Positions 9,496 through 30,298 of a DNA stretch of 34,818 nucleotides are shown piece by piece; positions within the stretch are counted from its first letter, which is position 1; each line of letters opens with the position of its first letter. The DNA is taken from positions 1-34,818 of the forward strand of contig CAMOYN010000001.1 of NCBI GenBank assembly GCA_946630035.1, written 5' to 3'. The translations under genes were made by a program, and so were the position numbers. This DNA comes from an uncultured Lachnospiraceae bacterium (lineage in GTDB: Bacteria > Bacillota > Clostridia > Lachnospirales > Lachnospiraceae). Below the pieces are notes generated by a model. The model saw nothing but the letters and a program-made list of their open reading frames with translations, had not been told where the DNA came from and did no database searches.

Positions 9496-9521
9496 GTATA
9501 GCAGCAGAGGAAGAGGTGCTT

Positions 9522-10571
9522 ATGAGCCAAAGAAAACTGGACAACCTGGGAGTCAGCGCTTTCTGTGAAAGTATGGCTATGATGATTCAGGCCGGCATCC
9601 AGACCGATGAGGCGATCGCCTTGCTGGGACAGAACCACGCCCATGTCACGGGTGGTGTTCTGGAGACGGCCATAGATAAGATGAAAGAGAAGGTGGAGAT
9701 AGGAGAAAGCCTGTCCTCTGCGATGCGCGAGAGTGAAATATTCCCGGAGTATGCTCTGCAGATGATAGCGGCCGGTGAGTCGGCCGGCCGGCTGGAAGAC
9801 GTGCTGTTCCGTCTCTCCCGTTACTATGCGGATCAGAAAACCATCAGTGAGAAGCTGAAAAATGCGGTCACTTATCCGGCCGCCATGCTGGTTCTGATCA
9901 TCGCCGTGCTGGCGGTGATGCTGACGATGGTGCTTCCCGCCTTTTCCGATGTCTATGATAATCTGACAGGAAGCCTGTCTTCTTCCACCTACAGTTACAT
10001 TCACTGGGCCTATGGATTCTGCTGGGTAGCCCTGGTCGTGATGGTGATTCTGGCCGTTCTGCTGATTGGCGGGCTGTGGCTCTGGAACCGCGGTGAGAAA
10101 AAGAAGGTGGAGGGACTGCTCCGGAAAATCCCGGTATGCAGAGACATCCTGGACACGATGGGGATGTTCCGGTTTACTTCCGCTCTGGAGACCTTCCTGG
10201 CCAGCGGCGAGATGCAGGATATCGCGGTGATCGACAGTATTGCCATGACGGACTGTGCTCCCGTGGAAGAGAAACTGAAACGATGCGTTTCCCGCATGGA
10301 AGAGGGACACAGCATTGCCCAGGCCGCCTATGATGAAGAGCTGTTTGAACCGGTGTATGGCCGGATGCTTCTGGCGGGTGAGCGAAGCGGCAGCATGGAG
10401 AATGTGCTGAGCCGTCTGACCGGACTCCTGGAAGAGAACTGCGGAAGCATGGTGGATCATCTGGTAGGTATCGTGGATCCTCTGCTGTCCGGTGTTTTGA
10501 TGGTAACCGTGGGATTATCCCTTCTGAGCGTCATGCTTCCTCTGATCGGTATGATGAACGCTGTGGGGTAA
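9522..10571 (+). CDS. pilC: Type II secretion / type IV pilus platform protein (GspF/PilC family)
   Basis: I prefer the ATG at 9522 (GAGGAAGAGG 5 nt upstream) over the GTG at 9516. Two T2SSF-type repeats are present: GESLSSAMRESEIFPEYALQMIAAGESAGRLEDVL and GHSIAQAAYDEELFEPVYGRMLLAGERSGSMENVL. TM segments lie between them. Confidence 0.9.
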   Translation: MSQRKLDNLGVSAFCESMAMMIQAGIQTDEAIALLGQNHAHVTGGVLETAIDKMKEKVEIGESLSSAMRESEIFPEYALQMIAAGESAGRLEDVLFRLSRYYADQKTISEKLKNAVTYPAAMLVLIIAVLAVMLTMVLPAFSDVYDNLTGSLSSSTYSYIHWAYGFCWVALVVMVILAVLLIGGLWLWNRGEKKKVEGLLRKIPVCRDILDTMGMFRFTSALETFLASGEMQDIAVIDSIAMTDCAPVEEKLKRCVSRMEEGHSIAQAAYDEELFEPVYGRMLLAGERSGSMENVLSRLTGLLEENCGSMVDHLVGIVDPLLSGVLMVTVGLSLLSVMLPLIGMMNAVG

Positions 10572-10656
10572 AAGAGCGCGGCGAAGGAATGAGAATCAGC
10601 GAAGTAACCCGGAGTAACCCCAGGAAACCGATGGATTTCCGGAAACAGGAGGTGCC

Positions 10657-10986
10657 ATGTATTCAGATAAGAAAAAGTTCAGATGGTCATGGCTCCTGGC
10701 AGGCGTATTGCTTGTAGCTCTGTTGGCAGCCGGCGGTGCGTTTTTCCGGATACGGGGAGGCGCGGACATTCATCAGGAGGCGGTTGTCTCTGTGAGGGAA
10801 GCCGTGGAGCGCGCGGCACTTCAATGCTATGTGGTCGAGGGGGCCTATCCCTCGGATCTGGAATATCTGACAGAAAACTATGGACTGGCGGTAAATACGA
10901 GGGATTTCTATATACGTTATGATGCGTTTGCCTCGAACCTTCCGCCCGATGTGAGAGTGGAACCAAAGCCGAAAGAAGAGAGGTGA
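10657..10986 (+). CDS. Pseudopilin-like small membrane protein with no canonical prepilin cleavage motif
   Basis: The RBS is AGGAGGTGCC. A single N-terminal hydrophobic helix (WSWLLAGVLLVALLAAGGAFF) is followed by AALQCYVVEGAYPSDLEYLTENYGL. This resembles the A..Y...G.YP..L..L..GY head-domain motif of GspG/ComGC-type pseudopilins. No G/FTLxE motif is present. Confidence 0.55.
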   Translation: MYSDKKKFRWSWLLAGVLLVALLAAGGAFFRIRGGADIHQEAVVSVREAVERAALQCYVVEGAYPSDLEYLTENYGLAVNTRDFYIRYDAFASNLPPDVRVEPKPKEER

Positions 10987-10993
10987 GTGCGGG

Positions 10994-11470
10994 ATGAGGG
11001 AGCAAAAGGGTTCTCCGCTGGGATTCTATATGCTGGGAATCTGTGCCCTGTTTCTGGCGAGCTTTCTGCTTCTGGTAGTTCTCGGCGCAGGAGTGTACCG
11101 CCGGACTACCGGCAGCCAGAATCAGAACAATCAGACCCGGGCTCTGCTGTCTTATCTTGCTACGGTGGTTCGCGCCAACGATATGAGCGGCGGTATCCAT
11201 GTAAGGGAAGGAGCAGCTCCGGACGGGCAGCTGCTGCTGATCGCGGAAGATGGCAGCGGATATGGTTCCCGGATCTATCCCTACGGGGAATATCTGCTGG
11301 AAGATTATGGCGAAGTGGAAGGGGAGTTTGACCCGGAGCACGCGCTGAAGATCGGCAAGATTCAACAGTTTGAGATCGACTGGGATAAGGATCAGAATTC
11401 TTTATGGATTACAGCCAATGATAATCATCTGCTGTTGCACCTCCGAAGCGAAGGGGGTGTCAGCGAATGA
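10994..11470 (+). CDS. Small membrane protein, possibly DUF4860-like (family recalled from memory, unverified), with a degenerate prepilin-like N-terminus
   Basis: The RBS is GAGAGGTGA. The N-terminus is MREQKGSPLG/FYMLGICALFLASFLLLVVL, with Gly-Phe ahead of the hydrophobic helix and Gly instead of Glu at +5. Its stop overlaps the next start (ATGA). Confidence 0.5.
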   Translation: MREQKGSPLGFYMLGICALFLASFLLLVVLGAGVYRRTTGSQNQNNQTRALLSYLATVVRANDMSGGIHVREGAAPDGQLLLIAEDGSGYGSRIYPYGEYLLEDYGEVEGEFDPEHALKIGKIQQFEIDWDKDQNSLWITANDNHLLLHLRSEGGVSE

Positions 11471-11898
11471 AGAAAAAGGGACATATAACTGCTTTTTACA
11501 TTGAAACACTGGTTATGATCACCGTGGTGATCGGCATTCTGCTGGTACTGTCTCAGATCATGGGGCTTTCCAGAAAGCAGAGTATCCGTGCCAAACGGCT
11601 GACCGAGGCTGTGACCATTGCCCAGAGCATGGCGGAGGCCTCCGTGGGCTGTGGTGACCTGGCATCCTTTCCCCTGGAACTGGGGGAAGCATCTCTGGGA
11701 GAAGAGACCGAAGGAAAAGAAGTTCTCTCCGGGACCTATCTTTGGTCCGATGAGGGAGAGGGAACAACCCTCTATCGGGTTCAGGTGCTGAGAACCCGGA
11801 TGGATGCGATGGCAGAGGACGAGATCTCTGTATTCCCGGCGGAGGGCGAGGAGCCCATCTACACCTTGCATGTGCGGCACAGAGAGGGGGAAACATGA
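11467..11898 (+). CDS. Pseudopilin-like protein with a degenerate class III signal
   Basis: The N-terminus is MKKKGHITAFYIETLVMITVVIGILLVL (compare the canonical KKGFTLIELLVVIAIIGIL). The Glu is displaced by one position and three residues are inserted after the Gly. It overlaps both neighbouring genes by ATGA. Confidence 0.55.
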   Translation: MKKKGHITAFYIETLVMITVVIGILLVLSQIMGLSRKQSIRAKRLTEAVTIAQSMAEASVGCGDLASFPLELGEASLGEETEGKEVLSGTYLWSDEGEGTTLYRVQVLRTRMDAMAEDEISVFPAEGEEPIYTLHVRHREGET

Positions 11899-12299
11899 AT
11901 CAGACGCCTGTTAAACTGGGACCGCTGGCCTTGCTGCTGACGGTGGTCAGCATCTGTCTGACAACATTGGCGATTCTGACCTTCTCAACCGCCCGGGCGG
12001 ACATGAGACTGGCAGAGAAATATGCCGATATGGTTTCCCTGCGATATGAACTGATGAATGAAGGAGAAGATTTCCTTCAAAGTGCCGAAGAGATGGCTGC
12101 GATGAGCATACCGGTTCGTTCCGTACCGGGCACCACGGCGGATGCACAGGGTGTAATTCGTTATGATCTGGAAAAGGATGGCATGCAGCTTACCATCGGT
12201 GTCCGGGAAGAGGCACAAAAGATATCCGTAGTGGATTATCGTATAACGAAGGAATGGGAAGAGGATCTGGATCTTGGAAATCTCTGGCCTGGATTCTGA
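11895..12299 (+). CDS. Small membrane protein (possible minor pseudopilin)
   Basis: The RBS is GAGGGGGAAAC. The N-terminus is MNQTPVKLG/PLALLLTVVSICLTTLAILTF, with a Gly just before a single hydrophobic helix. It is translationally coupled to the upstream gene. Confidence 0.45.
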   Translation: MNQTPVKLGPLALLLTVVSICLTTLAILTFSTARADMRLAEKYADMVSLRYELMNEGEDFLQSAEEMAAMSIPVRSVPGTTADAQGVIRYDLEKDGMQLTIGVREEAQKISVVDYRITKEWEEDLDLGNLWPGF

Positions 12300-12348
12300 T
12301 AATCAGGATTAATCCTGCATGGATGACAGAGAACGGGAGGGGAGTAAA

Positions 12349-13410
12349 ATGAACATCACTGAGATTCTGCAAAAGGCACTGGATGCCGGAGCTGCAGATA
12401 TATTTCTGATCGCCGGTCTGCCGGTTACGTTTAAGTGTAATGGGCACCAGGAAAGGATGCCCGGTGACCGGCTTTTGCCGGACAGTATTCAGACTCTGGT
12501 AGAGGAGATTTATGATGTGAGTCATCGTACCAGAGTCAACCTGGAACAGGGGATCGACGATGATTTCTCCTTTTCGCTGTCTCAGATGGGGCGTTTCCGT
12601 GTCAATGTCTTCCGGCAGAGAGGTTCTCTGGCGGCGGTAATCCGGGTGATTCACTTCGGACTGCCGGATCCCGTGGCACTGGGAATCCCGGAATCGGTTC
12701 TGTCCCTGGCGGACAATAAAAAAGGACTGGTACTGATCACAGGTTCCGCAGGAACCGGAAAATCAACAACCCTGGCCTGTATGATCGACCGGATCAACCG
12801 GCAGAGAGACTGCCACATCATTACGATGGAGGATCCGATCGAATATATTCACCGGCACGATAAAGCGATCGTGACCCAGAGAGAGATATCCATCGATACG
12901 CCGGGCTATCTCGAGTCTCTTCGTTCGGCGCTGAGAGAGAGTCCCGATGTGATTCTTCTGGGGGAGATGAGAGACTATGATACCATTTCTGCCGCGCTGA
13001 CCGCTGCAGAAACCGGTGTGCTTCTCTTCTCGACATTGCACACCAGCAGTGCATCGAATACGATCAACCGTATTCTGGATGTCTTCCCGGCCAACCAGCA
13101 GCAGCAGGTGAAGATTCAGCTGGCGCAGATTCTGAAAGGCGTGGTCTGCCAGCAGCTGGTACCGAAGATTGGCGGAGGACAGACAGCTGTATTTGAAATC
13201 ATGAAGACGACGACCGCCATTCAGAATATGATCCGGGAAGATAAACTGCATCAGCTGGATTCCGCGATGCAGGCCGGAGCCGCCGATGGCATGTGCACCA
13301 TGGATGGCAGCCTCCTCAGGCTGGTGAAAGAGGGAAAGATAACGAAGGAAACCGCCATGATTTCCTGCGTACATTATGAGAATATGAGTAAACGTCTGGG
13401 TGTCAGATGA
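12349..13410 (+). CDS. pilT: PilT-family hexameric secretion ATPase
   Basis: I prefer the ATG at 12349 (GGGAGGGGAG upstream) over the ORF-track start at 12319. Motifs seen: AADIFLIAGLP; GRFRVNVFRQRGSLAAVIRVI; Walker A GSAGTGKST; ITMEDPIEY; Walker B VILLGEMRD; LLFSTLHT; and the PilT-type signature AIQNMIREDKLHQ. At 353 aa it is the size of PilT or ComGA rather than PilB or GspE. Confidence 0.9.
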   Translation: MNITEILQKALDAGAADIFLIAGLPVTFKCNGHQERMPGDRLLPDSIQTLVEEIYDVSHRTRVNLEQGIDDDFSFSLSQMGRFRVNVFRQRGSLAAVIRVIHFGLPDPVALGIPESVLSLADNKKGLVLITGSAGTGKSTTLACMIDRINRQRDCHIITMEDPIEYIHRHDKAIVTQREISIDTPGYLESLRSALRESPDVILLGEMRDYDTISAALTAAETGVLLFSTLHTSSASNTINRILDVFPANQQQQVKIQLAQILKGVVCQQLVPKIGGGQTAVFEIMKTTTAIQNMIREDKLHQLDSAMQAGAADGMCTMDGSLLRLVKEGKITKETAMISCVHYENMSKRLGVR

Positions 13411-13442
13411 CGTAAATAGTGGACGAGAGATTACAGAGAAAA

Positions 13443-14693
13443 ATGGAAATGGATAAGAATTTAAACGAACAGGATATTTTGTATGTAAAAATGTTTGGAA
13501 ACTTCTCCATGACATGGCATGGAAAAGCGCTGGCAGGCGAGGCTAAATCCCTGGAGTCCCAGTTCATTCTACTGATGGAAATTCTGCTGCATAATCGTGA
13601 AAAAGGAGTCACACGAGATCAACTGGAAAGAGCTCTGTTTGAAAACCGGGACATCGATGATGTGCACCATGCGCTGAGAACCGTTATCTATAATGCAAGG
13701 AAAAAGCTGAAAAAATATGGGTTGCCCGATGTGAATTACATTGTTTCCGAGAAAGGGGTCTACACCTGGACGAAGGAGATTCCGGTGGTGGAGGATGCCA
13801 CGGAGATGGAAAAAATGATGGCTCAGGCGGAGGAAGAGACCGATCCGGCAAAGAAGAAAGCATTGTATCTGGATGCATGTCATTGCTATACCGGCGAGTT
13901 CCTCTCCAGTCAGATCGGGATTGTATGGATTGCAAGGGAAGCCAGAAAATACAGAGAATTGTTTTTTGACTGCGTGAATAAGACGGTGGAACAGCTGCGG
14001 GTTTCCCATGACTATTTCCAGATGGAGTCGCTGGGGTATTATGCGTCGAAACTGCATCCGCTGGAGAACTGGGAAATCGTGACCATGGAAGCATTGACGG
14101 CCATGGGACGCTATGATGATGCGGTAAAGCTGTACGAGGATACCGTGGATCTCTACTTCCGGGAGGAAGGACTGAAGCCTTCGGGACGTCTGATGGAGAT
14201 GCTGGATGAACTGGGAAGCAGTATGGAACATCAGCATGCCGTCCTGGATGACATTCAGGGAGACCTGGCCGAAGAGGGAGAGCCCGGCGGTGGGTATGCC
14301 GTTTCCTACCCGGTGTTCCAGGGAATCTATCGTATGATTGAACGGCTGCTGGAACGCGGCGGCCAGTCGGTATTTCTGATGCTGTGCACGGTGGTGGACA
14401 GTAAAGGGAATCCAATGAGAGAAGGGAGCGCTCTGGAGGAGCTGTCCCAGCGTCTGGGAGAAGCGATCCACAATTCCGTGCGGCACAGCGATACGATGAC
14501 CCGCTATGGGAGAGGACAGTATCTGGTTCTTCTGGTTAATACCACTCTGGAAGACTGTAAGATTGTTCAGAAGAGAATTAATCTGCATTTTATTAAAGGA
14601 CGTCAAAGAACGGGAATCAAGTATCACGTGAATTCAGTAATCTGCGAGCCGGATATTATATTCCACTCAAAAGGACCGGAGGACAGAGAATAA
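13443..14693 (+). CDS. SARP-like winged-helix / BTAD regulator fused to a degenerate GGDEF domain with an intact RxxD I-site
   Basis: The start is uncertain (GTG 13419, ATG 13443 or ATG 13449). The N-terminus reads ILYVKMFGNFSMTWHGKAL...QFILLMEILLHNREKGVTRDQLERALF...ALRTVIYNARKKL, which is SARP/OmpR-like. ALYLDACHCYTGEFLS is a BTAD-like string. The C-terminus reads VFLMLCTVVDSKG...LGEAIHNSVRHSDTMTRYGRGQYLVLLVN. It aligns with PleD RAIDLPCRYGGEEFVVIM: RHSD corresponds to the RxxD I-site and GRGQY replaces GGEEF. Confidence 0.75.
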   Translation: MEMDKNLNEQDILYVKMFGNFSMTWHGKALAGEAKSLESQFILLMEILLHNREKGVTRDQLERALFENRDIDDVHHALRTVIYNARKKLKKYGLPDVNYIVSEKGVYTWTKEIPVVEDATEMEKMMAQAEEETDPAKKKALYLDACHCYTGEFLSSQIGIVWIAREARKYRELFFDCVNKTVEQLRVSHDYFQMESLGYYASKLHPLENWEIVTMEALTAMGRYDDAVKLYEDTVDLYFREEGLKPSGRLMEMLDELGSSMEHQHAVLDDIQGDLAEEGEPGGGYAVSYPVFQGIYRMIERLLERGGQSVFLMLCTVVDSKGNPMREGSALEELSQRLGEAIHNSVRHSDTMTRYGRGQYLVLLVNTTLEDCKIVQKRINLHFIKGRQRTGIKYHVNSVICEPDIIFHSKGPEDRE

Positions 14694-15172
14694 TGGCAAA
14701 TTCACAATGCTATATCGGGACTCCCAATGGCGTAGTTTTGTGTGTTGACCGGAAATCAGGCGACGGCCTGGATGGACATTTCTGGCATGGATACAGGGAA
14801 GATGCCGTGAAATTTTCAAGACTGTATGAATTTGTACAGGAGCTGGAAAAATTCTTTGATGAGATCCGTTTTCCGTACCGCGGTACGACGATGCGTACGT
14901 TCGGAGTGGCAGCAGTTCCCAGACAGAGACAGGAGAAAACGAGGGTTATGGCAGACGAGAAACTACTGGAAAAGAGAGGCGACCTGGGGACTTTCATCGT
15001 TCGGGTGCAGCACCGTCAGAACAGCAGCTGGCAGGGACGTCTGACCTGGATTGAAGAAGACAAAACGGTATATTTTCGCTCCATCTGGGAGATGATAAAG
15101 CTGGTGGAGAGCGCTCTGGATACCGTGGATTCGGAAGAATTGATGGAGAATGTTTCCTGGTCGGAAGAGTGA
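14693..15172 (+). CDS. Hypothetical cytoplasmic protein built from two copies of a domain of about 45 aa
   Basis: The start overlaps the upstream stop (TAATG), and GGAGG lies 10 nt upstream. The two halves align: VVLCVDRKSGDGLDGHFWHGYREDAVKFSRLYEFVQELEKF and FIVRVQHRQNSSWQGRLTWIEEDKTVYFRSIWEMIKLVESA. I do not recognise the family. Confidence 0.6.
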   Translation: MANSQCYIGTPNGVVLCVDRKSGDGLDGHFWHGYREDAVKFSRLYEFVQELEKFFDEIRFPYRGTTMRTFGVAAVPRQRQEKTRVMADEKLLEKRGDLGTFIVRVQHRQNSSWQGRLTWIEEDKTVYFRSIWEMIKLVESALDTVDSEELMENVSWSEE

Positions 15173-16890
15173 TGGAGATGGATAAAAAACTGCGGCATTA
15201 CAACGATATCCGTCGTGTTGTGATGGTTGTGGATGATGAGCCGATCAACCAGGAGATGCTGGGATTTATCCTGAAAAAGGATTATGAAGTCGTGCTGGCA
15301 TCGAATGGCGAAGAGGCACTGGAGAAGATCCGGAGCCGTAAAAGGACTCTTTCCATGATACTCCTGGATTTGAATATGCCGGTTATGGATGGCTATCGTC
15401 TGCTGGAAATACTCCGGGAAGATGAAGAACTGAAGTACATTCCTGTGATTGTACTGACGGCAGAGGATGGGGCAGAAGTCCGGTGTCTGGAACTGGGCGC
15501 AGTGGATTTTATCAAAAAGCCTTACAACGTTCCGAGTGTGATACTGGCCAGGGTCCGGCGGGCGATTGAACTGTCCGAAGATAACCGGATTATACAGGAT
15601 GCAGAACAGGACGAACTGACCGGATTATACAACCGGGTATTCTTCTTTGAGTATGCGTCACAGATGGATCCTTTTCAGGAAAAAGGCGAGACGGACGCCA
15701 TTGTGATCAATATTGATCATTTTCATCTGGTCAATGAATTATACGGCAGAATCTATGGGGATCAGGTCCTGCAAGCCATTGCCGACGGAATCCGGGAATT
15801 CATGGATGAGAACCGGGGGATTGCCTGCCGGTGTGACGGGGATATGTTCTATATCTATTGCCCTCACCAGAAGGAACCTGCTGCGATTCTGGATGTGATC
15901 CGACGCCATCTGGAAAAACTGCCCGATGATTCGCGGATTCGCCTGCGGATGGGAGTCTATGCGAAGGCGGCACCGGATGAGCTGATGGAACGACGATTTG
16001 AACGCGCAAAACTGGCCTGCAGTACGGTGCGCGGCAAATACATAGAACCGGTTGCCTGCTATGATGTTTCCATGTCGGAGACGGAAGTTCTCTCAGAGCG
16101 ACTGGTCAATGATCTGAAAAGAGGTCTGGATGAGAAACAGTTTAAGGTCTGGTTCCAGCCGAAATACGCTATTCAGGGAGAACAGCCCCAGCTTTCCAGT
16201 GCGGAGGCTCTGATCCGGTGGGATCATCCTGAATTCGGAATGATCAGTCCGAGTGTATTTATCCCTCTTTTTGAGAATAATGGGCTGGTGCAGAAACTGG
16301 ATCATTATGTCTGGGCGGAAGCAGGAAGATGGATTGCTTCCTGGAAAAGTAAATATGGATTTACGGTACCGGTTTCCGTGAATATATCCCGGGTGGACAT
16401 GTATGACCCCCGGCTGAAGGAAAAGATACTGACGATATTAGAAGAGAATCATCTGACTCCGGAGGATTATCTCCTGGAAATCACGGAATCGGCTTATTCC
16501 GATGATCTGGAACAGCTGATTCATATCGTGGAAGAACTGCGTGTTCTGGGATTTATGATCGAGATGGATGATTTCGGAGCCGGATATTCAACCTTGAATA
16601 TGCTCACGGTTCTTCCGGTGGATGTTCTGAAGCTGGATATGCAGTTTGTGAAGAATGCAACCAGCGACAGAAAGAATTACCGGCTGGTAGAACTGATGAA
16701 AGATATTGCCAGATTCCTGGAGGTGCCGATTGTGGCAGAGGGTGTCGAGACGAAGGAGCAGTGTGAGATACTGCAGAAGATCGGATTCGACCTGGTGCAG
16801 GGATATTATTTCAGCCCGCCCCTGCCTCCGGAGGAATTTGAAAAGCTGATAAAAAAGGAAGTCGATAGGAAAGGAGCAGAGATATGTTGA
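15172..16890 (+). CDS. Response-regulator receiver + degenerate GGDEF + EAL domain protein (predicted c-di-GMP phosphodiesterase)
   Basis: Candidate starts are GTG 15169, ATG 15172 and ATG 15178, overlapping the upstream stop. REC domain: VVMVVDDEP...MILLDLNMPVMDG...VIVLTA. GGDEF fold with the A-site changed to RCDGDMF. EAL domain: QPKY...AEALIRW, NISRVD, EITES, DDFGAGYS, LKLD, VAEGVET, QGYYF. The catalytic set looks complete. Confidence 0.9.
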   Translation: MEMDKKLRHYNDIRRVVMVVDDEPINQEMLGFILKKDYEVVLASNGEEALEKIRSRKRTLSMILLDLNMPVMDGYRLLEILREDEELKYIPVIVLTAEDGAEVRCLELGAVDFIKKPYNVPSVILARVRRAIELSEDNRIIQDAEQDELTGLYNRVFFFEYASQMDPFQEKGETDAIVINIDHFHLVNELYGRIYGDQVLQAIADGIREFMDENRGIACRCDGDMFYIYCPHQKEPAAILDVIRRHLEKLPDDSRIRLRMGVYAKAAPDELMERRFERAKLACSTVRGKYIEPVACYDVSMSETEVLSERLVNDLKRGLDEKQFKVWFQPKYAIQGEQPQLSSAEALIRWDHPEFGMISPSVFIPLFENNGLVQKLDHYVWAEAGRWIASWKSKYGFTVPVSVNISRVDMYDPRLKEKILTILEENHLTPEDYLLEITESAYSDDLEQLIHIVEELRVLGFMIEMDDFGAGYSTLNMLTVLPVDVLKLDMQFVKNATSDRKNYRLVELMKDIARFLEVPIVAEGVETKEQCEILQKIGFDLVQGYYFSPPLPPEEFEKLIKKEVDRKGAEIC

Positions 16891-17225
16891 CAATAGAAGC
16901 TTTGCGTGAATACGGCGCAAATGTAGACGAAGGCCTTGCCAGGTGCTTTAACAACGCGGATTTCTACCTGAAACTGGTAGGAATGCTGGGCAATGAAAAA
17001 GGCTTTGACAAACTGGAGGAAGCGCTGGAAAAGAACGACCTGGATGCTGCATTTGAGGCGGCTCATGCATTGAAGGGTGTACTGGGAAATCTCTCGCTCA
17101 CACCGGCTTATACACAGGTCAGTGAAATCACAGAATTGCTTCGCAGCCGCACCAATATGGACTATAGTGAACGGTTGGCGGGTATCATGGAGCAGCAGAA
17201 GATCCTGAAGGAGTTGTTGAATTAA
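16884..17225 (+). CDS. Histidine phosphotransfer (HPt) domain protein
   Basis: AAGGAG lies 7 nt upstream, and the gene overlaps the EAL gene stop. The HPt signature is AAHALKGVLGNLSL. The product is a four-helix-sized protein of 113 aa. Confidence 0.8.
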   Translation: MLTIEALREYGANVDEGLARCFNNADFYLKLVGMLGNEKGFDKLEEALEKNDLDAAFEAAHALKGVLGNLSLTPAYTQVSEITELLRSRTNMDYSERLAGIMEQQKILKELLN

Positions 17226-17812
17226 TGAAGAAGCGCAGAGCAGTTCCTTTTGTGCCGGAGGTCGCAGCTCTGGAAAGGGAACTGCAGAAGGAATATCAAA
17301 ACAAAAAACGTTTTCGCACTTTCCGGCGTATGGCTTTTACTCTGGTGACAGTGTCAGCGGTGGCGATTCTGGTCGCTATTCTATGGATGCCGGTGCTGCG
17401 GATTTATGGCAGCTCCATGGCACCGACATTGTTTGAGGGTGATATTGTTGTGTCCGTAAAGGAGCAGAACATGAAACCGGGAGATATCATTGCCTTCTAT
17501 TATAACAATGAGATCCTGGTGAAACGGCTGGTCGGAGTTGCCGGGGACTGGATTGATATCGATGAGGAAGGGAATGTATATCTGAATGGCACTCTTCTGG
17601 ATGAGCCGTATGTGCAGGAAAAGGCTTTTGGTGAGACGAACATTCAGCTGCCTTATCAGGTACCAGAGAATCGTGTCTTTGTGCTGGGAGACCATCGCAG
17701 CGTCTCCATTGATTCGAGAAACACCGCGGTAGGCTGCGTGGCGGCAGAGCAGATCGTCGGAAAGATTACCATGAGGCTCTGGCCGATCACAGAAATGTCG
17801 ATTGTCAAGTAA
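17225..17812 (+). CDS. lepB: Type I signal peptidase (S26A, LepB/SipS type), paralogue 1
   Basis: The start overlaps the HPt stop (TAATG). After the TM segment come YGSSMAPTL (Ser box), ILVKRLVGVAGD (Lys box) and VLGDHRSVSIDSR. Confidence 0.9.
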   Translation: MKKRRAVPFVPEVAALERELQKEYQNKKRFRTFRRMAFTLVTVSAVAILVAILWMPVLRIYGSSMAPTLFEGDIVVSVKEQNMKPGDIIAFYYNNEILVKRLVGVAGDWIDIDEEGNVYLNGTLLDEPYVQEKAFGETNIQLPYQVPENRVFVLGDHRSVSIDSRNTAVGCVAAEQIVGKITMRLWPITEMSIVK

Positions 17813-18201: not shown

Positions 18202-18810
18202 ATGAGTAAAGAAAAAACGAATAGGACGGATGAACAACAGCACCATAATGAACCGGATATTGCTACCCTGGAATCGGAGCTGGAAAGAGAACGCTATAAG
18301 AGCCGCTACCGAAGCGCCCTTCAGAGCACGATCTTTACCTTGATCACAGTAGCGGCCGCAGCGGTACTGGTTGCGACGCTGTGGATGCCGGTGCTGCAGA
18401 TCTATGGTTCCTCCATGAACCCGGGATTGGCAGCGGGGGATATCGTCGTCTGCCGGAAAGCGGAGAAGGTCAAACGGGGCGATATCATTGCTTTCTATTT
18501 TAATAACAAGATACTGGTGAAGCGCGTGATCGGTACCAGCGGCGATCAGGTGTCTATTTCCGATGAAGGCGTAGTGACTGTTAACGGAGAGACACTGCAG
18601 GAATCCTATATAACAGAGCAGTCTCTGGGACAGTGCAATGTTACCTTCCCTGTGGTTGTGCCCCAGGGCAAGGTCTTTGTTGTGGGAGATAACCGGGGAA
18701 CGTCGGTGGATTCCAGAAACAGCGCCGTCGGCTGCGTAGACACAGAGCAGATGATCGGAAAACTCCTGGTCCGTGTCTGGCCGATCGATAATCTCAGCAT
18801 CGTAAAATAG
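18202..18810 (+). CDS. lepB: Type I signal peptidase (S26A), paralogue 2
   Basis: YGSSMNPGL, ILVKRVIGTSGD and VVGDNRGTSVDSR are present. The N-terminal region (LESELERERYKSRYRS...LWMPVLQIYGSSM) is collinear with paralogue 1 (LERELQKEYQNKKRFRT...LWMPVLRIYGSSM). Confidence 0.9.
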   Translation: MSKEKTNRTDEQQHHNEPDIATLESELERERYKSRYRSALQSTIFTLITVAAAAVLVATLWMPVLQIYGSSMNPGLAAGDIVVCRKAEKVKRGDIIAFYFNNKILVKRVIGTSGDQVSISDEGVVTVNGETLQESYITEQSLGQCNVTFPVVVPQGKVFVVGDNRGTSVDSRNSAVGCVDTEQMIGKLLVRVWPIDNLSIVK

Positions 18811-18833
18811 ACAGACATAAAATAGACAGATAT

Positions 18834-19790
18834 ATGATAGATGATACTATGAAAGAAGGAAAGAAAATCCGGCTGGTGGCCCTGGACCTGGACCGGACAA
18901 CCCTGCGGGATGACAAAAGCCTGTCCCCCGCCAACCGGGAAGCCATCCAGGCATGTCTGGCGGCAGGTATTCATGTGGTAGTGGCCAGTGGCCGCGCCTA
19001 TGGCTCCCTGCCGGCCGAAGTGATGCAGATCCCAGGTCTTACCTACGCCATCACCGGCAACGGCGCGGCCATCTACGCCCTGGATGAGTCAGAAGGGACG
19101 GTTCTTTTTGACTCATTGCACGCAAATGAGTCAAAAAGAACCGTCCCTTCTGACTCATCCGGGTTGCCGCCGGCACGCAGGATTCACGCGAATCTCCTCA
19201 CTCCGACATCGGTGCGGCAGATTCTGGAACTGGTGCCGGAGCGGTTCCCCCTGGAGACCTTCGTGGAAGGGATTCCCTTTGCGTCCGCAGAGTATGTGAA
19301 AGATCCGATGGCCTTCGGGGCAAAAGCCTGGGCCGTGGATTATGTACAGTCAACCCGACGTCCGGTGGAGGATATCCGGGCGTTTATTATTGAAAACATC
19401 CGGACCCTGGATTCTCTGGATGTGGTGATCGATGATGCCTCCGGCCGGCAGGATCTCCGATCGGTGCTGGAGGAGAAGGTGGAGGATGTCTATATCACCG
19501 CCTCGGTTCCTCAGCTGATCGAGATTTCCCACCGGGACAGCGGGAAAGCCTACGGCCTTCGCTGGATAGCAGAGTACCTGGGCATTCCGTTAGAAGAGAC
19601 CGTCGCTTTCGGAGATGCGGAAAATGATAGGGAGATGCTGGCCGCCGCCGGACTGGGAGTCGCCATGGAGAATGCCGGGGAGGCCGTGAAGGCAGTGGCC
19701 GACCGGATCGCTCCCTCCAATGAAGACGATGGCGTGGCCTGCGTATTGCAGGAAATACTATATTTCACAAAGAAATCACAGAATTATTAG
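18834..19790 (+). CDS. Cof-type HAD-IIB phosphatase carrying an in-frame palindromic insertion
   Basis: Motif I is LVALDLDRTTL, VVASGR is present, and motif IV is FGDAENDREML. At 318 aa it is about 40-50 aa longer than typical Cof proteins. The extra segment (ESEGTVLFDSLHANESKRTVPSDSS...) coincides with the inverted repeat at 19082-19160. The start is uncertain (18834 or 18849), and neither has a good RBS. Confidence 0.8.
   Translation: MIDDTMKEGKKIRLVALDLDRTTLRDDKSLSPANREAIQACLAAGIHVVVASGRAYGSLPAEVMQIPGLTYAITGNGAAIYALDESEGTVLFDSLHANESKRTVPSDSSGLPPARRIHANLLTPTSVRQILELVPERFPLETFVEGIPFASAEYVKDPMAFGAKAWAVDYVQSTRRPVEDIRAFIIENIRTLDSLDVVIDDASGRQDLRSVLEEKVEDVYITASVPQLIEISHRDSGKAYGLRWIAEYLGIPLEETVAFGDAENDREMLAAAGLGVAMENAGEAVKAVADRIAPSNEDDGVACVLQEILYFTKKSQNY
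19082..19160. repeat. Perfect 36-bp inverted repeat (7-nt spacer) inside the HAD coding sequence; a dimer of a dispersed palindromic element
   Basis: The left arm is GGATGAGTCAGAAGGGACGGTTCTTTTTGACTCATT (19082-19117). The spacer is GCACGCA. The right arm (19125-19160) is the exact reverse complement of the left arm. A third copy of the same unit lies at 28481-28515. Confidence 0.95.
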
Positions 19791-19813
19791 CACTCGCACT
19801 TGACGAGTGCTAA
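19787..19813. promoter_or_regulatory. CIRCE operator (HrcA binding site)
   Basis: TTAGCACTC-GCACTTGAC-GAGTGCTAA matches the CIRCE consensus TTAGCACTC-N9-GAGTGCTAA exactly. It overlaps the stop codon of the HAD gene. Confidence 0.9.
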
Positions 19814-19828
19814 TTTTGGATATATAAT
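19800..19828 (+). promoter_or_regulatory. Sigma-A type promoter overlapping CIRCE
   Basis: TTGACG (19800-19805), a 17-nt spacer, then TATAAT (19823-19828). The -35 box lies inside the CIRCE spacer and right arm. Confidence 0.65.
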
Positions 19829-20041
19829 GTATTCAGAACCGAGAAAAGAGTTACAATCATTGGTGTTTTGATGGTACAGTTCTGTTTTAACACCAGCCAT
19901 AAGCAAGAATTGATCAGGACTGTATATTCCGCAGGGGATATGCAGTTCTTTTATATCTTGTCTTACAGGAAATATCGAAGAAATAACCTGTCAGACAAAA
20001 CCACTAAAATCAGAATACTACGGAAGAGAGGAGGAAACCAT

Positions 20042-21259
20042 ATGACACAGAGCAAAGATTTTTATCAGGTGCTGGGAGTTTCCCGTACAGCATCGGATGC
20101 GGAGATAAAGAAAGCCTACCGCAAACTGGCGAAGAAATATCATCCGGATACCAATTCCGGAAATACCTTTGCAGCGGAAAAGTTCAAAGAAGCCAATGAT
20201 GCATATGGGATTCTCGGGGATTCGGAAAAAAGAAAAATCTATGATAAATATGGGGCCGATGCCTTCGACGGCAGCGGCAATATCCGCGAAGAAATAAAGG
20301 AGTGGGAGAAAAACGGAGGCCAGGGAAATCCGTTCCGGGGCGGCTTCGAAGGAGGCCAGGGAAATCCGTTCCGCGGCGGCTTCGGAGGAGGCCAGGGAAA
20401 TCCGTTCCGTGGCGGCTTCGGAAGCAGTCAGGGCGGCCCGTCCCAGGGCAGCTGGCAGGAGGTTCATTTTGACGGAGATCCAGAGGATCTGGAGGAGATC
20501 CTGAAGCAGATGTTCGGCAGCTCCGGAGCCCGGGGATTCACCGGCGGACATTTCGGAGGCCATGGCAGCCAGGGATTTACCGGAAGTGGCTTTGGCGGAC
20601 ATGGCGGTCAGGGCTATACCGGAAGTGGCTTTAATGGACATGGAAGTCGTGGTTTTACCGGCAGTGACTTCTCCAGCGGCTTTGAAGGTCGCGGCAGTCG
20701 TGGTTTCGGAGGATACGGAGGAGCCGATCCGGGGCAGGGCGCCGATGCTTCGGCCGAGATGACCATCAACCTGGAAGATGCGGTCAATGGCGGGGACCGT
20801 GAGATTTCCCTGCAGGATGAAAGCGGACAGAAACGGACCATCAAGGTGAATATCCCGGCGGGTATTGAAGAAGGACAGAAAATCCGTCTTCGCGGCCAGG
20901 GGGCGAAGGGCGCCTATGGCAAACCGGCGGGGGATCTGTACCTGACCGTGCATATCCGGCCGAAACAGGGATTTGAAAGAAAAGGAAATGACATCTACAC
21001 TACGGCGAGGATTCCCTTTACCACGGCGGTTCTCGGCGGTGAGACCGTTGTCCCTACCCTCTACGGAAATGTCAGCTGTCATATCAAGGAAGGTACCCAG
21101 GCGGGCACCCGAATCCGTCTTCGGGGCAAAGGGGCTCCGGAAAGGAAAAATCCCCGGGTCAGAGGCGATCAGTATGTACAGATCGAAATTGAAACACCCC
21201 GCGCCCTGACACCGGAAGCCCGCGCCAAACTGGAAGAATTCCGCCGGCTCGCCGGATAA
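20042..21259 (+). CDS. J-domain co-chaperone of the CbpA/DnaJ class II type (no zinc-finger domain) with an expanded Gly/Phe-rich repeat region
   Basis: I prefer the ATG at 20042, with GAGGAGGAAACCAT upstream. The J domain is at the extreme N-terminus: [31 protein letters not shown]. About 170 aa of G/F-rich repeats follow. The DnaJ C-terminal domains read [21 protein letters not shown]...GDLYLTVHI...IRLRGKGAP. No CxxCxGxG motif is present. Confidence 0.85.
20315..20422 (+). repeat. Three tandem 36-nt repeats encoding [11 protein letters not shown](E/G)
   Basis: GGAGGCCAGGGAAATCCGTTCCG(G/C/T)GGCGGCTTCG(A/G)A occurs three times in frame within the J-protein gene. Confidence 0.9.
20558..20674 (+). 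repeat. Three tandem 39-nt repeats encoding GHG(S/G)(Q/R)G(F/Y)TGS(G/D)F(G/N/S)
   Basis: The units [26 protein letters not shown] and [13 protein letters not shown] are read directly from the translation. Confidence 0.8.
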
Positions 21260-21746: not shown

Positions 21747-21840
21747 AGACAGGGGACAGAAGGAGACAGGGGACGGTCCTGCGTCTCCCGAAAGGGAGAC
21801 ACAGGACCGTCCCCTGTCTCCTTCTGTCTCCTTCTGTCTC
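21747..21840. repeat. Long imperfect palindrome (arms of about 44 nt, GAAA loop) built from GAGACAGGGGAC(GG/AG) units
   Basis: The left arm is GAGACAGGGGACAGAAGGAGACAGGGGACGGTCCTGCGTCTCCC. The loop is GAAA. The right arm is GGGAGACACAGGACCGTCCCCTGTCTCCTTCTGTCTCCTTCTGTCTC. It shares the GGGGACGGTCC core with the other dispersed elements. Confidence 0.85.
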
Positions 21841-21846
21841 CCCCCG

Positions 21847-21910
21847 GCGGGATCCGCACCTGAAAAGAAATTTTATTTCCCTTCAGGTGCGGATCCCGCT
21901 ATTATTTTGG
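21847..21910 (+). terminator. Second stem-loop: a perfect 18-bp stem followed by a T-rich tract
   Basis: GCGGGATCCGCACCTGAA (21847-21864) pairs with TTCAGGTGCGGATCCCGC (21882-21899) around a 17-nt loop. TATTATTTT follows. Confidence 0.55.
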
Positions 21911-27515: not shown

Positions 27516-27619
27516 ATTTTTCGCACAATGAATATTTCAGTTAACAGTCAGACTAATTGAATAAAACAATCGATTCGTCTATTCTGTTTTATAAAATAAG
27601 TGATCATAGAGGAAGATTT

Positions 27620-28474
27620 GTGGAAGATATTAGCATTATTGACAGAGACGTCATGGACGTCATCCGCAGGAAGTACGATGATATTTTTCCGGCCGAGAAG
27701 AAGGCCGCCGATTTTGTGCTGGAAAAACCGACGGAGGCAGTGAATTACAATGTCTCCGGTCTGGCAAAAGCCAGCGGAGTAAGCGATGCAACCATTATCC
27801 GCATGTGCCACCATCTGGGGTACACCGGGTATTACCAGTTCCGGCTGGCCCTTTCCCGGGAGCTGGGGAAGAAACAATCGAAGGTACCGGATCGGACGGA
27901 CCCGGGGAATGTGCTGCACGCTGTGTTTGAGGAATATGCCTCTACCATTTCCACCATAGGGCGGAATCTGGACGTGGAAATTCTCTGGAAATGCGTGGAG
28001 CTGCTGAAAACCGCCGGCACCGTGCACATCATCTCCATGGGAAATACGACCAACGTCTCCGGATACCTGGGTTTCCGACTGGAACGGCTCGGCGTCCGGT
28101 GCACCAATTCCGACCTGCCGGAATATTTTATCAATCATATCGCCCTGGCCGATCCCACCGACATCGTAGTAGCCATCACCAAATCCGGCTCGTCAAAGCG
28201 GGTAATCGACGCCATGAAACTGGCGCGCGAGAAAAAACTGAAGATGATCGTCATCACCGCTTACGAACACTCCCCCGCCTCCGAACTGGCCGACTATCGC
28301 CTGGACAGCCGCGGCACCAGCACCCCCGGAACCGGAGACTTCCACAAGGAGTACTCCTACCTCAACGAATTCGTGATCGTAGAAACCTTAATCAACCTGA
28401 TCGCGAACGAGGAACGGATCCGGAACCAGCAGGCAGATCGTCTCGAGATGCTGCTGGCCGAAAACAAACTATAG
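27620..28474 (+). CDS. RpiR-family transcriptional regulator (HTH_6 + SIS domain)
   Basis: The start is uncertain: GTG 27620 (AGAGGAAGA 5 nt upstream), ATG 27653, or the ORF-track start at 27557. HTH region: AEKKAADFVLEKPTEAVNYNVSGLAKASGVSDATIIRMCHHLGYTGYYQFRLAL. SIS region: VHIISMGNTTNVSGYLGFRL...IVVAITKSGSSKRVIDAMKLAREK. Confidence 0.8.
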   Translation: MEDISIIDRDVMDVIRRKYDDIFPAEKKAADFVLEKPTEAVNYNVSGLAKASGVSDATIIRMCHHLGYTGYYQFRLALSRELGKKQSKVPDRTDPGNVLHAVFEEYASTISTIGRNLDVEILWKCVELLKTAGTVHIISMGNTTNVSGYLGFRLERLGVRCTNSDLPEYFINHIALADPTDIVVAITKSGSSKRVIDAMKLAREKKLKMIVITAYEHSPASELADYRLDSRGTSTPGTGDFHKEYSYLNEFVIVETLINLIANEERIRNQQADRLEMLLAENKL

Positions 28475-28480
28475 ACTTTA

Positions 28481-28515
28481 GATGAGTCAGAAGGGACGGT
28501 TCTTTTTGACTCGTT
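28481..28515. repeat. Single copy of the GAGTCAGAAGGGACGGTTCTTTTTGACTC element, located between genes
   Basis: GATGAGTCAGAAGGGACGGTTCTTTTTGACTC is identical over 32 nt to 19083-19114. It is self-complementary (GAGTCA...TGACTC) and contains a T run, so it may also act as the rpiR terminator. Confidence 0.9.
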
Positions 28516-28533: not shown

Positions 28534-29214
28534 ATGAAAAGATCAAGAGTGAACGAGGTTATTCGGGACATGGAAAAACTCTGCAGAGAGCACGGTTTTC
28601 ATCTCCCCCCCTTCGCAGACTGGAGCGTCGAAGACTGGCAGAAAGCCGGCCATGAATACGATGAGATCCGCGACAACAAACTGGGCTGGGATATCACCGA
28701 TTACGGCCTGGGGAAGTTTGATGAAGTCGGATTCTCCCTCTTCACCATCCGCAACGGCAACCAGAAAATGCCGGAGAAGTATCCGAAAACCTACGCTGAG
28801 AAGCTGCTGATGCTCTATCCCGGACAGACCGCACCACTCCATTATCATGTCAGCAAGATGGAAGATATCATCAACCGCGGAGGAAATGACGTCTACATCA
28901 CCGTATACAATGGGACAAAAGAGATGGAAAAACTGGACACCGACGTAACCGTCCATTCCGACGGACGCGTATATACCGTACCCGCCGGCACCCGCGTACA
29001 GCTGAAACCCGGCCAGAGCATCACCATCACCCCGTACCTGTTCCACGATTTTATCGTACCCGAAACCGGCGGCTCCGTACTGCTCGGCGAAGTATCCATG
29101 TGCAACGACGATGAAAACGACAACTTCTTCTACGAACGCATGGGACGCTTCCCCACCATCGAAGAAGACGAGCCAGCCTACCACCTCCTCTGCACCGAAT
29201 ACCCCGAAGCCTGA
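28534..29214 (+). CDS. D-lyxose/D-mannose family sugar isomerase (cupin)
   Basis: It is collinear with my recollection of the E. coli O157 D-lyxose isomerase of about 227 aa. Shared strings: HLPPFA..W; LGWDITDYGLGKF; FTIRNGN; YAEKLLM...QT.P.HYH..KMEDIINRGGN; LLGEVS..NDD..DN.F; EDEPA..LC.EY. Confidence 0.85.
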   Translation: MKRSRVNEVIRDMEKLCREHGFHLPPFADWSVEDWQKAGHEYDEIRDNKLGWDITDYGLGKFDEVGFSLFTIRNGNQKMPEKYPKTYAEKLLMLYPGQTAPLHYHVSKMEDIINRGGNDVYITVYNGTKEMEKLDTDVTVHSDGRVYTVPAGTRVQLKPGQSITITPYLFHDFIVPETGGSVLLGEVSMCNDDENDNFFYERMGRFPTIEEDEPAYHLLCTEYPEA

Positions 29215-29221
29215 CCCCCGG

Positions 29222-29250
29222 CGAGCCGCCAGCGGGGACAGGTCCCGGTG
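29222..29250. repeat. Single arm of the CGAGCCGCCA-GGGGACAGGTCCC-GTGG element
   Basis: CGAGCCGCCAGCGGGGACAGGTCCCGGTGG closely matches both arms of the palindrome at 30193-30262. The core GGGACAGGTCCC is itself palindromic. Confidence 0.8.
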
Positions 29251-29273
29251 GAAAAACTCTTCGGAATACGGAA

Positions 29274-30167: not shown

Positions 30168-30192
30168 TAAAATAAAAACAGCCGATGGGCAA

Positions 30193-30262
30193 CCAATGGG
30201 GACAGGTCCCGGTGGCCGGATTTTTCCGCCACTGGGACCTGTCCCCATTGGCGGCTCGCGAA
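30193..30262. repeat. 23-bp-stem palindrome of the GGGGACAGGTCCC element between convergent genes (probable bidirectional terminator)
   Basis: CCAATGGGGACAGGTCCCGGTGG (30193-30215) pairs with CCACTGGGACCTGTCCCCATTGG (30229-30251), with one G-T position and a 13-nt loop. The flanking CGGCTCG extends the match to the copy at 29222. Confidence 0.85.
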
Positions 30263-30298
30263 GTGCGAGGAATGGAACGCAGGAACCGTCCCCCCGTT

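Follow-up and report, generated by a model that had tools for sequence, protein, structure and literature searches.

A probable REPIN-like doublet of hairpin repeats within a Cof-type phosphatase gene of an uncultured Lachnospiraceae bacterium

The DNA considered here, positions 1 to 34,818 of the forward strand of contig CAMOYN010000001.1 (GenBank assembly GCA_946630035.1) from an uncultured Lachnospiraceae bacterium, is referred to in its full length of 34,818 nucleotides (nt) as the window. It contains a gene for a Cof-type phosphatase of the haloacid dehalogenase (HAD) class IIB, and within that gene lies a perfect palindrome through which the open reading frame (ORF) continues. The locus raises the question of what this palindrome is, how it came to lie in a coding sequence and why the gene is still open. 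The answer argued below is that the element is probably a doublet similar to those formed by repetitive extragenic palindromic (REP) sequences and known as REPINs, and that it originated as a repeat doublet associated with a transposase of the RAYT (REP-associated tyrosine transposase) or TIRYT type.

The palindrome comprises an arm of 36 nt, GGATGAGTCAGAAGGGACGGTTCTTTTTGACTCATT (19082-19117), its exact reverse complement (19125-19160) and the 7-nt spacer GCACGCA between them (19118-19124), 79 nt in all, just as an earlier note made from the sequence alone had read it. If the CCTGG/CCGGG flanks are included, the inverted repeat extends to 39 nt (97%; 19079-19163), for which no comparable match was found in the shuffled window (n = 100). 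Folded as RNA, the 93-nt palindrome region reaches -74.6 kcal/mol (z = -16). Each arm alone is itself an imperfect hairpin, GAUGAGUCAGAAGGGA-CGG-UUCUUUUUGACUCAUU, with several G-U (G-T) pairs (-18.4 kcal/mol as RNA, z = -5.4; about -9 kcal/mol for the complementary strand), and this makes the 79-nt palindrome a doublet in which two smaller hairpin units stand head to head, an arrangement that matches the architecture of the REP doublets called BIMEs (bacterial interspersed mosaic elements) or REPINs. The parts of the locus are as follows.

18834 to 19790, plus strand: host gene, a Cof-type HAD-IIB phosphatase of 318 amino acids (aa), catalytic motifs intact.
19080 to 19166, plus strand: interval holding the 84-nt (28-codon) net insertion, from homologue alignments; breakpoints ambiguous.
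19082 to 19160, no strand: two hairpin units facing each other as a REPIN-like doublet, from the perfect 79-nt palindrome and its fold.
19084 to 19117, plus strand: left unit, core GGGACGGTTCTTTTTGAC, an imperfect hairpin; metagenome copies align from 19082 or 19084.
19118 to 19124, no strand: spacer GCACGCA; related copies have ACACGGC or GCATGCA.
19125 to 19158, minus strand: right unit, reverse-complementary to the left one; other copies stop at 19157-19159.

An assembly artefact, whether a palindromic chimera or a collapsed repeat, has to be weighed at the outset, as the earlier note had recognized. Short-read assemblers break at the repeat; many metagenome contigs stop inside the palindrome, and none spans the whole element in the runs examined. 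Against an artefact, a second public contig, 100% identical across 17.5 kb and probably from the same strain, carries the palindrome identically, and contigs from independent sheep, goat and gut metagenomes link unique gene sequence to each arm. Contigs X2 (18700-19104) and X3 (18757-19109) connect the gene's 5' part with the left arm; contig X4 (19156-19420) runs on from the end of the right arm into unique 3' gene sequence. The junction-bearing contigs, from several studies, diverge in their flanks by about 0.3% to about 4% and show no disruption of the frame, and similar doublets are present in other metagenome-assembled genomes (MAGs). With both junctions supported by independent contigs, an artefact is hardly credible. 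A 274-nt skip in X3 was considered as an empty site and disregarded, since it rests on a 22-nt flank.

The 318-codon ORF stays open through the palindrome, where it reads ...LDESEGTVLFDSLHANESKRTVPSDSS..., and the motifs DLDRTT and GDAEND are in one frame, as had been claimed from the letters alone. Its product matches Pfam Hydrolase_3 (7e-46) in two stretches that straddle the insert; HAD motifs I-IV and the C2B-cap fold are present, 36 invariant positions of the family are intact, and D18, D20, T22, S52, K238, G260, N264 and D265 occupy columns that are invariant or nearly so. The nearest proteins among 5.8 billion searched are 45-57% identical and 273-295 aa long. Alignment with homologues (17, then 73 sequences), a check that the earlier note had suggested, shows that the segment separating NGAA(I/V)Y from (R/C)(I/L)H, which comprises 34 residues in the window, has exactly 6 in 73 of 73 homologues, none of which places a residue in the 28 extra columns. 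The net insertion relative to homologues is accordingly 84 nt (28 codons), which replaces the earlier figure of 79 bp. Deletion of 84 nt gives back IY-ALPPAR-RIH in any register from 19080-19163 through 19083-19166, and the restored ALPPAR agrees with the homologue pattern x-[ILV]-P-x-x-[KR]; the register is ambiguous because a TG dinucleotide stands at both possible junctions (microhomology), and no clean target-site duplication was found apart from this TG. Alternatively, the insert may measure 78 nt (26 codons) and have entered a loop that was already two residues longer.

Structure prediction was another check suggested in that note. In an AlphaFold2 model built from 74 sequences (predicted local distance difference test, pLDDT, 91.8; predicted template modelling score, pTM, 0.90), the insert occupies the turn of a surface beta-hairpin (strands 79-83 and 114-119) at the passage from the core into the cap, and is predicted to be a disordered loop: residues 84-113 have pLDDT below 65 (below 50 at 87-98) and no secondary structure. 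Apart from this loop, the model can be superposed on sugar phosphatases of the HAD-IIB class (257-285 aa), including YidA, YbiV, BT4131 and others (E to 1.8e-21).

The element belongs to a repeat family found far beyond this gene. Metagenome depth is 50-490x over the element and 3-5x over the Cof gene, and a 25-nt core, GTCAGAAGGGACGGTTCTTTTTGAC, is present in four rumen MAGs assigned to Lachnospiraceae, Oscillospiraceae and Clostridiales. Among the matches listed, more than 120 metagenome contigs from rumen and human gut carry the 18-nt core GGGACGGTTCTTTTTGAC, a scope that holds for all copy counts below; transposases were counted on about 125 unit-bearing contigs. In all, 171 copies of the 18-nt-core unit were read, and the unit consensus is (xx)GTCAAtG-GGGACGGTTCTTTTTGAC(x'x'). 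Beyond the fixed GTCA/TGAC stem, three pairs covary across 161 distinct copies; the pair -8/18, for example, appears as T-A 95 times and as A-T 40 times, and is paired in 88% as against 52% in shuffles (shuffle maximum 64%). Because these outer stem pairs covary, the hairpin of the repeat unit is judged to be under constraint.

Where two units lie within 120 nt of each other, their polarity is nearly uniform (36 plus then minus, against 1 minus then plus), with spacers of -3 to 106 nt, among which the core-to-core gap of 17 seen in the window is one of the commonest; repeated short half-sites such as TGTCAATGG often stand outside the doublets. Units also occur singly, and most copies lie between genes in many genomes, in keeping with the MITE/REP-like palindromic element that the earlier note had proposed. 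About 3 of about 130 loci are within credible genes, a strong depletion of coding loci given bacterial coding density. One of these, in another MAG (L002), is a doublet in frame within a mannose-1-phosphate guanylyltransferase gene, whose NTP_transferase domain (1.2e-25) is matched in two stretches and whose C-terminal cupin is intact. On contig L058, a small ORF with no Pfam match reads the repeat in the frame used by the Cof gene (GTVLFD...KRTVPSD). Long open frames over units in L005, L016 and L115 appear to be non-coding or antisense and were excluded as coding insertions. A blastn search of the element against annotated phage and plasmid records returned one weak plasmid match and zero phage matches, one viral contig matched the 18-nt core, and a full-text literature search for the string GGGACGGTTC found unrelated primer matches only. 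At L005 4440-4580 and L026 9469-9524 units are duplicated partially or in tandem, in one instance as a full unit with a truncated one joined to it, and these duplications suggest slippage or repeated nicking at the hairpins.

Some of these units stand beside a gene for a transposase of the HUH class with a single catalytic tyrosine (Y1). On contig L026, two tandem plus units and one minus unit surround a gene of 245 aa whose product matches Pfam Y1_Tnp (PF01797, 8.9e-13), and a local tblastn search found homologues (34-55% identity) on 6 of the approximately 125 unit-bearing contigs, each no more than 160 nt from a unit. In L026, L020 and L023 the order is unit (+), gene, unit (-), the same polarity as in the short doublets. 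In two isolates, Butyrivibrio sp. VCB2001 and FCS006, the Y1 gene is syntenic and has plus and minus units on its sides, here as the species-specific variants GGGACGGTTCTCTTTGAC and GGGACGTTTCAGTTTGAC; FCS006 (L129 9762-10820) has three tandem units on each side of the gene with a period of 34-45 nt. Three unit pairs 0.8-1.2 kb apart (L013, L097 and L120) were tried as long elements and rejected, as they enclose ordinary genes and no transposase. Two observations on the surroundings may be added: the FCS006 transposase gene adjoins resolvase, relaxase-fragment and HTH_17 genes, remnants of other mobile elements, and on L026 (9600-9860) some 250 nt of degenerate CTGTACTTTCTGCA(T/C)TCT-like tandem repeats separate the left units from the 3' end of the transposase gene.

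The Y1 protein family has more than 1000 relatives at E <= 1e-10, mostly in Lachnospiraceae/Butyrivibrio with some in Anaerolineae, and a few members carry the JGI name RayT. The HUH motif N59-H60-V-H62 (NHVHLL) and the segment Y119-ILN-N123-P124 (Y-x3-NP) are invariant in the family, and a conserved C-terminal tail, GLSxRQIERLTG, resembles a helix-turn-helix (HTH; HTH_28 and HTH_23 matches are sub-threshold, E 0.007-0.17) and falls in a region modelled as helices (residues 187-244; AlphaFold2, pLDDT 87). The best fold match of the model is 4ER8_A (E = 5.6e-7, template modelling score 0.74, root-mean-square deviation 2.6 A), which is E. coli TnpA-REP bound to a REP hairpin and which scores ahead of the TnpA proteins of IS608, ISDra2 and IS200; PDB sequence and profile searches with the transposase gave no significant match.

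The earlier note had described a MITE/REP-like element that invaded the gene without destroying it. Its REP-like, in-frame and ORF-preserving parts agree with these results, among them the presence of a HUH/Y1 transposase gene of the REP type beside units; the other label fits less well. A classical MITE (miniature inverted-repeat transposable element) would be a deletion derivative of an insertion sequence (IS) of the DDE type, with the arms as terminal inverted repeats and a target-site duplication. The two long inverted arms around a short interior, variable in the family as the spacer range shows, would suit such an origin, as would the TG at both possible junctions. It is opposed by the hairpin nature of the individual arms, which have covarying stems and often occur singly, by the lack of a clean duplication, by the Y1/HUH gene as the sole transposase beside or between units (the 6 contigs and 2 isolates) and by the absence of any DDE gene between the distant unit pairs inspected. 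A MITE is accordingly very unlikely, and the REP-like reading is preferred because the self-complementary arms are also found singly, no clean duplication is seen and the transposase is of the tyrosine and not the DDE type.

On the reading as a REPIN-like doublet, the element consists of two imperfect hairpin repeats of about 33 nt in inverted orientation, members of a family that is dispersed in rumen and gut Clostridia and has a RAYT/TIRYT-type Y1 transposase as its partner. The transposase, if it acts like E. coli TnpA-REP and the IS200/IS605 enzymes, would recognize the hairpin in its single-stranded form, cleave next to it and transfer the doublet, and one such transposition event would have put a doublet into the Cof gene. 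Three things probably account for the survival of the Cof copy: the 84 nt gained are a multiple of three, the frame in use has no stop codon, and the 28 residues would fall at a surface beta-hairpin turn where core and cap meet and a floppy loop could be tolerated. Insertions that were out of frame or carried stops would have been removed by selection. Two of the three frames of each arm are free of stops (EGTVLFD/KRTVPSD and RGRFFLT/QKEPSLLT), so that a stop-free doublet in frame is not improbable.

Several points weigh against this account. That the Y1 enzyme mobilizes the repeat is something we infer by analogy, and the flanking of its gene by units was shown in relatives. Its top NCBIfam model, REP-associated tyrosine transposase (REP_Tyr_transpos), scores 48 bits against a cut-off of 80. 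The GT[AG]G foot typical of REP units is absent from the Clostridia units, which have neither GTAG nor GTGG at the 5' side and show (A/G)(T/G)G(T/A)GTCA in the columns upstream of the stem. About 75-79 of the 84 extra nt are common to other copies of the repeat and 5-9 nt are not, and no insert-free allele that would fix the exact ends of the insert was seen in 8 metagenome runs. Finally, the perfect arms suggest a recent event or continuing correction of one arm by the other, and for that reason the intact ORF alone is no proof of a working enzyme.

This last point supports another view of the same origin, in which the insertion has left the gene functionally dead. In HAD-IIB enzymes the hairpin at the entrance to the cap lies in a region that shifts during catalysis, and an insert at this core-cap hinge, or the hairpin in the mRNA, might kill the enzyme while the ORF stays open because the event is recent. 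The perfectly complementary arms would fit a young copy, the insert does lie in the hairpin leading into the cap, and the RNA evidence is thin: metatranscriptome contigs of depth 2-3 cover both halves of the gene and none crosses the element. Opposed to inactivation are the intact catalytic motifs and 36 invariant positions, the high-confidence fold of the remainder, the junctions found without frame disruption in strains up to about 4% apart in the flanking gene, and those same low-depth transcript contigs on both sides. A dead gene seems rather doubtful on this balance, and the Cof protein is presumably still active.

A different proposal is that the element has been co-opted, either as an mRNA stem (a target for RNase III or a brake on translation) or as a 28-residue loop, and is selected because it regulates the phosphatase. 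The stem is very stable (-74.6 kcal/mol), the insertion is common to strains a few percent apart in different hosts, and the small ORF on L058 uses the frame of the Cof gene over the repeat. Intergenic copies have essentially the same sequence, however, which leaves nothing specific to the gene, and the loop is predicted to be disordered. The single units, too, argue against a general role of the family in RNA: among the matches listed and by crude ORF-based calls, 69 are at gene 3' ends and 42 at 5' ends, and the 69 show no strand preference (37 sense, 32 antisense). Co-option is thus improbable. An intrinsic terminator within the Cof gene was also considered and rejected, as no T-run follows the stem and a terminator scan called none there; neither an Rfam family (at gathering thresholds) nor a tRNA was found in the window. 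Since single units show no sense-strand preference and no terminator is present, the conserved G-T asymmetry of the hairpin is more likely a feature of recognition at the DNA level than one of RNA.

The doublet in the Cof gene is accompanied by related units elsewhere in the window. The motif GGGAC(N0-2)GGTYC occurs 9 times against 0.43 expected, at 5-6 loci that are intergenic except for the Cof copy, and sorts into three classes (19095/19138/28493, 21770/21804 and 29235/30199/30235) plus one occurrence at 30283.

21751 to 21832, no strand: second-class doublet GGAGACAGGGGACGGTCCTGCGTCTCC with a 4-nt spacer and outer repeated half-sites GGAGACAGAA; intergenic.
28480 to 28515, plus strand: single unit of the same class as the Cof arm, with 2 mismatches; intergenic.
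29218 to 29251, plus strand: third-class single unit GCCGCCAGCGGGGACAGGTCCCGGTGG; intergenic.
30182 to 30259, no strand: third-class doublet, core GGGGACAGGTCCC; intergenic.
30283 to 30292, minus strand: additional GGGACGGTTC motif beside the third-class doublet, from a motif scan.

The single unit at 28480-28515 begins 6 nt past the stop of ORF 27557-28474 and ends 18 nt before ORF 28534-29214. The earlier note had located the same unit at 28481-28515; the intergenic copy is there, with the coordinates shifted as given and 2 of 36 positions different. Directly past the second-class doublet lies an inverted repeat with 25-nt arms, GCGGGATCCGCACCTGAAAAGAAAT and its reverse complement, around a 3-nt loop (21847-21899), which is probably a terminator-like hairpin of another kind.

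The repeat also generates reading frames of its own. A spurious ORF of 71 codons (19084-19299; MSQKGRFFLTHCTQMSQKEPSLLTH..., MSQKGRFFLTH...) arises from it in the window, and on other contigs the open frames that cross copies again and again encode RGRFFLT, QKEPSPLT, GTVLFD or KRTVPSD; such repeat-derived peptides are likely to seed false hypothetical proteins in databases. For annotation, the odd 28-residue segment of the Cof protein is to be taken as derived from a repeat and not as a specialization of the cap, and should be masked in alignments and function prediction; more widely, the repeat fragments short-read assemblies of rumen and gut Clostridia and makes spurious small ORFs. It offers a clear Gram-positive case in which hairpin repeats go with a transposase of the RAYT/TIRYT type, and its natural in-frame inserts in two enzymes may serve as test cases for the mobilization of such repeats and for their tolerance by proteins and mRNAs.

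The Cof gene has several neighbors of interest in their own right. Overlapping the end of its ORF is a perfect CIRCE operator (HrcA site), TTAGCACTC-N9-GAGTGCTAA (19781-19828), which also overlaps a strong promoter-like site, TTGACG-17-TATAAT (11/12), upstream of a gene for a DnaJ-like chaperone; a second peak of metagenome depth at 19776-19816 (up to 1345x) was tried as a mobile repeat and rejected, as it is this operator. The DnaJ-like gene (20042-21259) encodes DnaJ and DnaJ_C domains and a long Gly/Phe-rich linker built from 36-nt tandem repeats (a 12-residue unit, three times) at 20315-20453 and 20585-20706; the ORF as listed starts upstream, at 19868, but gene calling on the identical contig puts the start at what is here 20042. 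Tandem paralogues of signal peptidase I (S26; 17225-17812 and 18202-18810), with 72% DNA identity across 200 nt, immediately precede the Cof gene. Farther upstream (9516-17225; gene calls from the identical contig L001) is a pilus/secretion cluster with T2SSF, T2SSE and DUF4860, and past this cluster are a BTAD/Trans_reg_C regulator, a GGDEF+EAL response regulator and an Hpt protein.

Among known systems, the closest parallel is that of REP doublets moved by single-copy RAYTs, which are well described in Proteobacteria, with E. coli and Pseudomonas as examples (Bertels & Rainey 2011, PMC3116915; PMC3337134). The Clostridia family resembles these REP/REPIN-RAYT systems in its units, imperfect palindromes of 30-35 nt that are dispersed and mostly intergenic and whose inverted doublets form long hairpins; in the inverted units that flank a low-copy HUH/Y1 gene, syntenic in two related species; and in repeats that vary between species beside a Y1 protein whose closest solved fold is TnpA-REP. 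It differs in a Y1 protein that is about 80 residues longer and ends in a helix-turn-helix-like tail, in hosts that are Clostridia and not Proteobacteria, and in an identical core of 18-25 nt that crosses bacterial families. Work by Nunvar in 2010 is also said to concern REP/REPIN-RAYT systems. Because the GT[AG]G foot is absent, the repeat is not filed here as a canonical REP; it is classed instead among palindromic repeats associated with a RAYT/TIRYT, and would work in the manner of a REPIN.

A second group into which the family would fit is that of TIRtrons. TIRtrons, or TIRYTs, are tyrosine transposase genes whose flanking inverted repeats share GGGGWSAS, and some of these repeats are self-complementary, occur as dimers or clusters and can form moderate families (Di Nocera 2013, PMC3733652). 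TIRYTs correspond to TnpAY1 subclass 2.1, a long form with a C-terminal HTH that equals Bertels' RAYT Group 1, and no REP-like hairpins were found beside subclass 2.1 genes (Quentin 2018, PMC6006769); RAYT Group 1 occurs in Clostridia (Bertels 2017, PMC5581495). The longer tyrosine transposase (245 aa), the inverted repeats around its gene and the dimers and clusters are shared with TIRtrons, whose proteins have a C-terminal HTH of the HTH_23, HTH_28 or Bac_DnaA_C type (the matches here are sub-threshold). With regard to GGGGWSAS, the third-class sequence GGGGACAG fits, the common GGGGACGG is one position off and the Cof copy reads AGGGACGG. Unlike in TIRtrons and subclass 2.1, the flanking repeats here are clear covarying hairpins with the G-rich motif at the apex, and REPIN-like doublets are abundant.

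It is conceivable, and put forward tentatively, that the GGGACGGTTC-core hairpins are an undescribed and very widespread REPIN-type population of rumen and gut Clostridia, run by the largest RAYT group (Group 1/subclass 2.1/TIRYT), with GGGGWSAS at the hairpin apex as the recognition site. Were this so, the same core beside transposases that are only 34-52% identical and come from different bacterial families would suggest horizontal spread or an unusually conserved protein-DNA code, and the sharing of the core across families would differ from proteobacterial REPIN-RAYT pairs, which are vertically inherited.

IS200/IS605 elements, which also have miniature derivatives associated with palindromes, act by HUH/Y1 chemistry on hairpins in single-stranded DNA and insert without target duplication. 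They have the Pfam Y1_Tnp domain in common with the 245-aa protein, but their hairpins are direct on one strand and the whole element is multi-copy, whereas here the hairpins are inverted around the gene and it is the short repeats that multiply. Rickettsia palindromic elements (RPE), reportedly treated by Ogata in 2000, are palindromic repeats in frame within protein genes; the Cof insert shares this property and belongs to a different repeat family in different hosts. The intragenic REPs of several species provide the nearest match to the insertion itself, as more than half of those insertions occur as dimers or groups that encode 20-30 residues (Di Nocera 2013, PMC3733652). The Cof insert is likewise an in-frame palindromic dimer, of 28 residues, but it comes from another repeat family and other hosts and lies in a sugar phosphatase, in contrast to the DNA-repair and replication genes emphasized in that study. 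Apparently, then, the repeat family is one little described in Clostridia, and the Cof gene supplies an in-frame example of it and no new mechanism.

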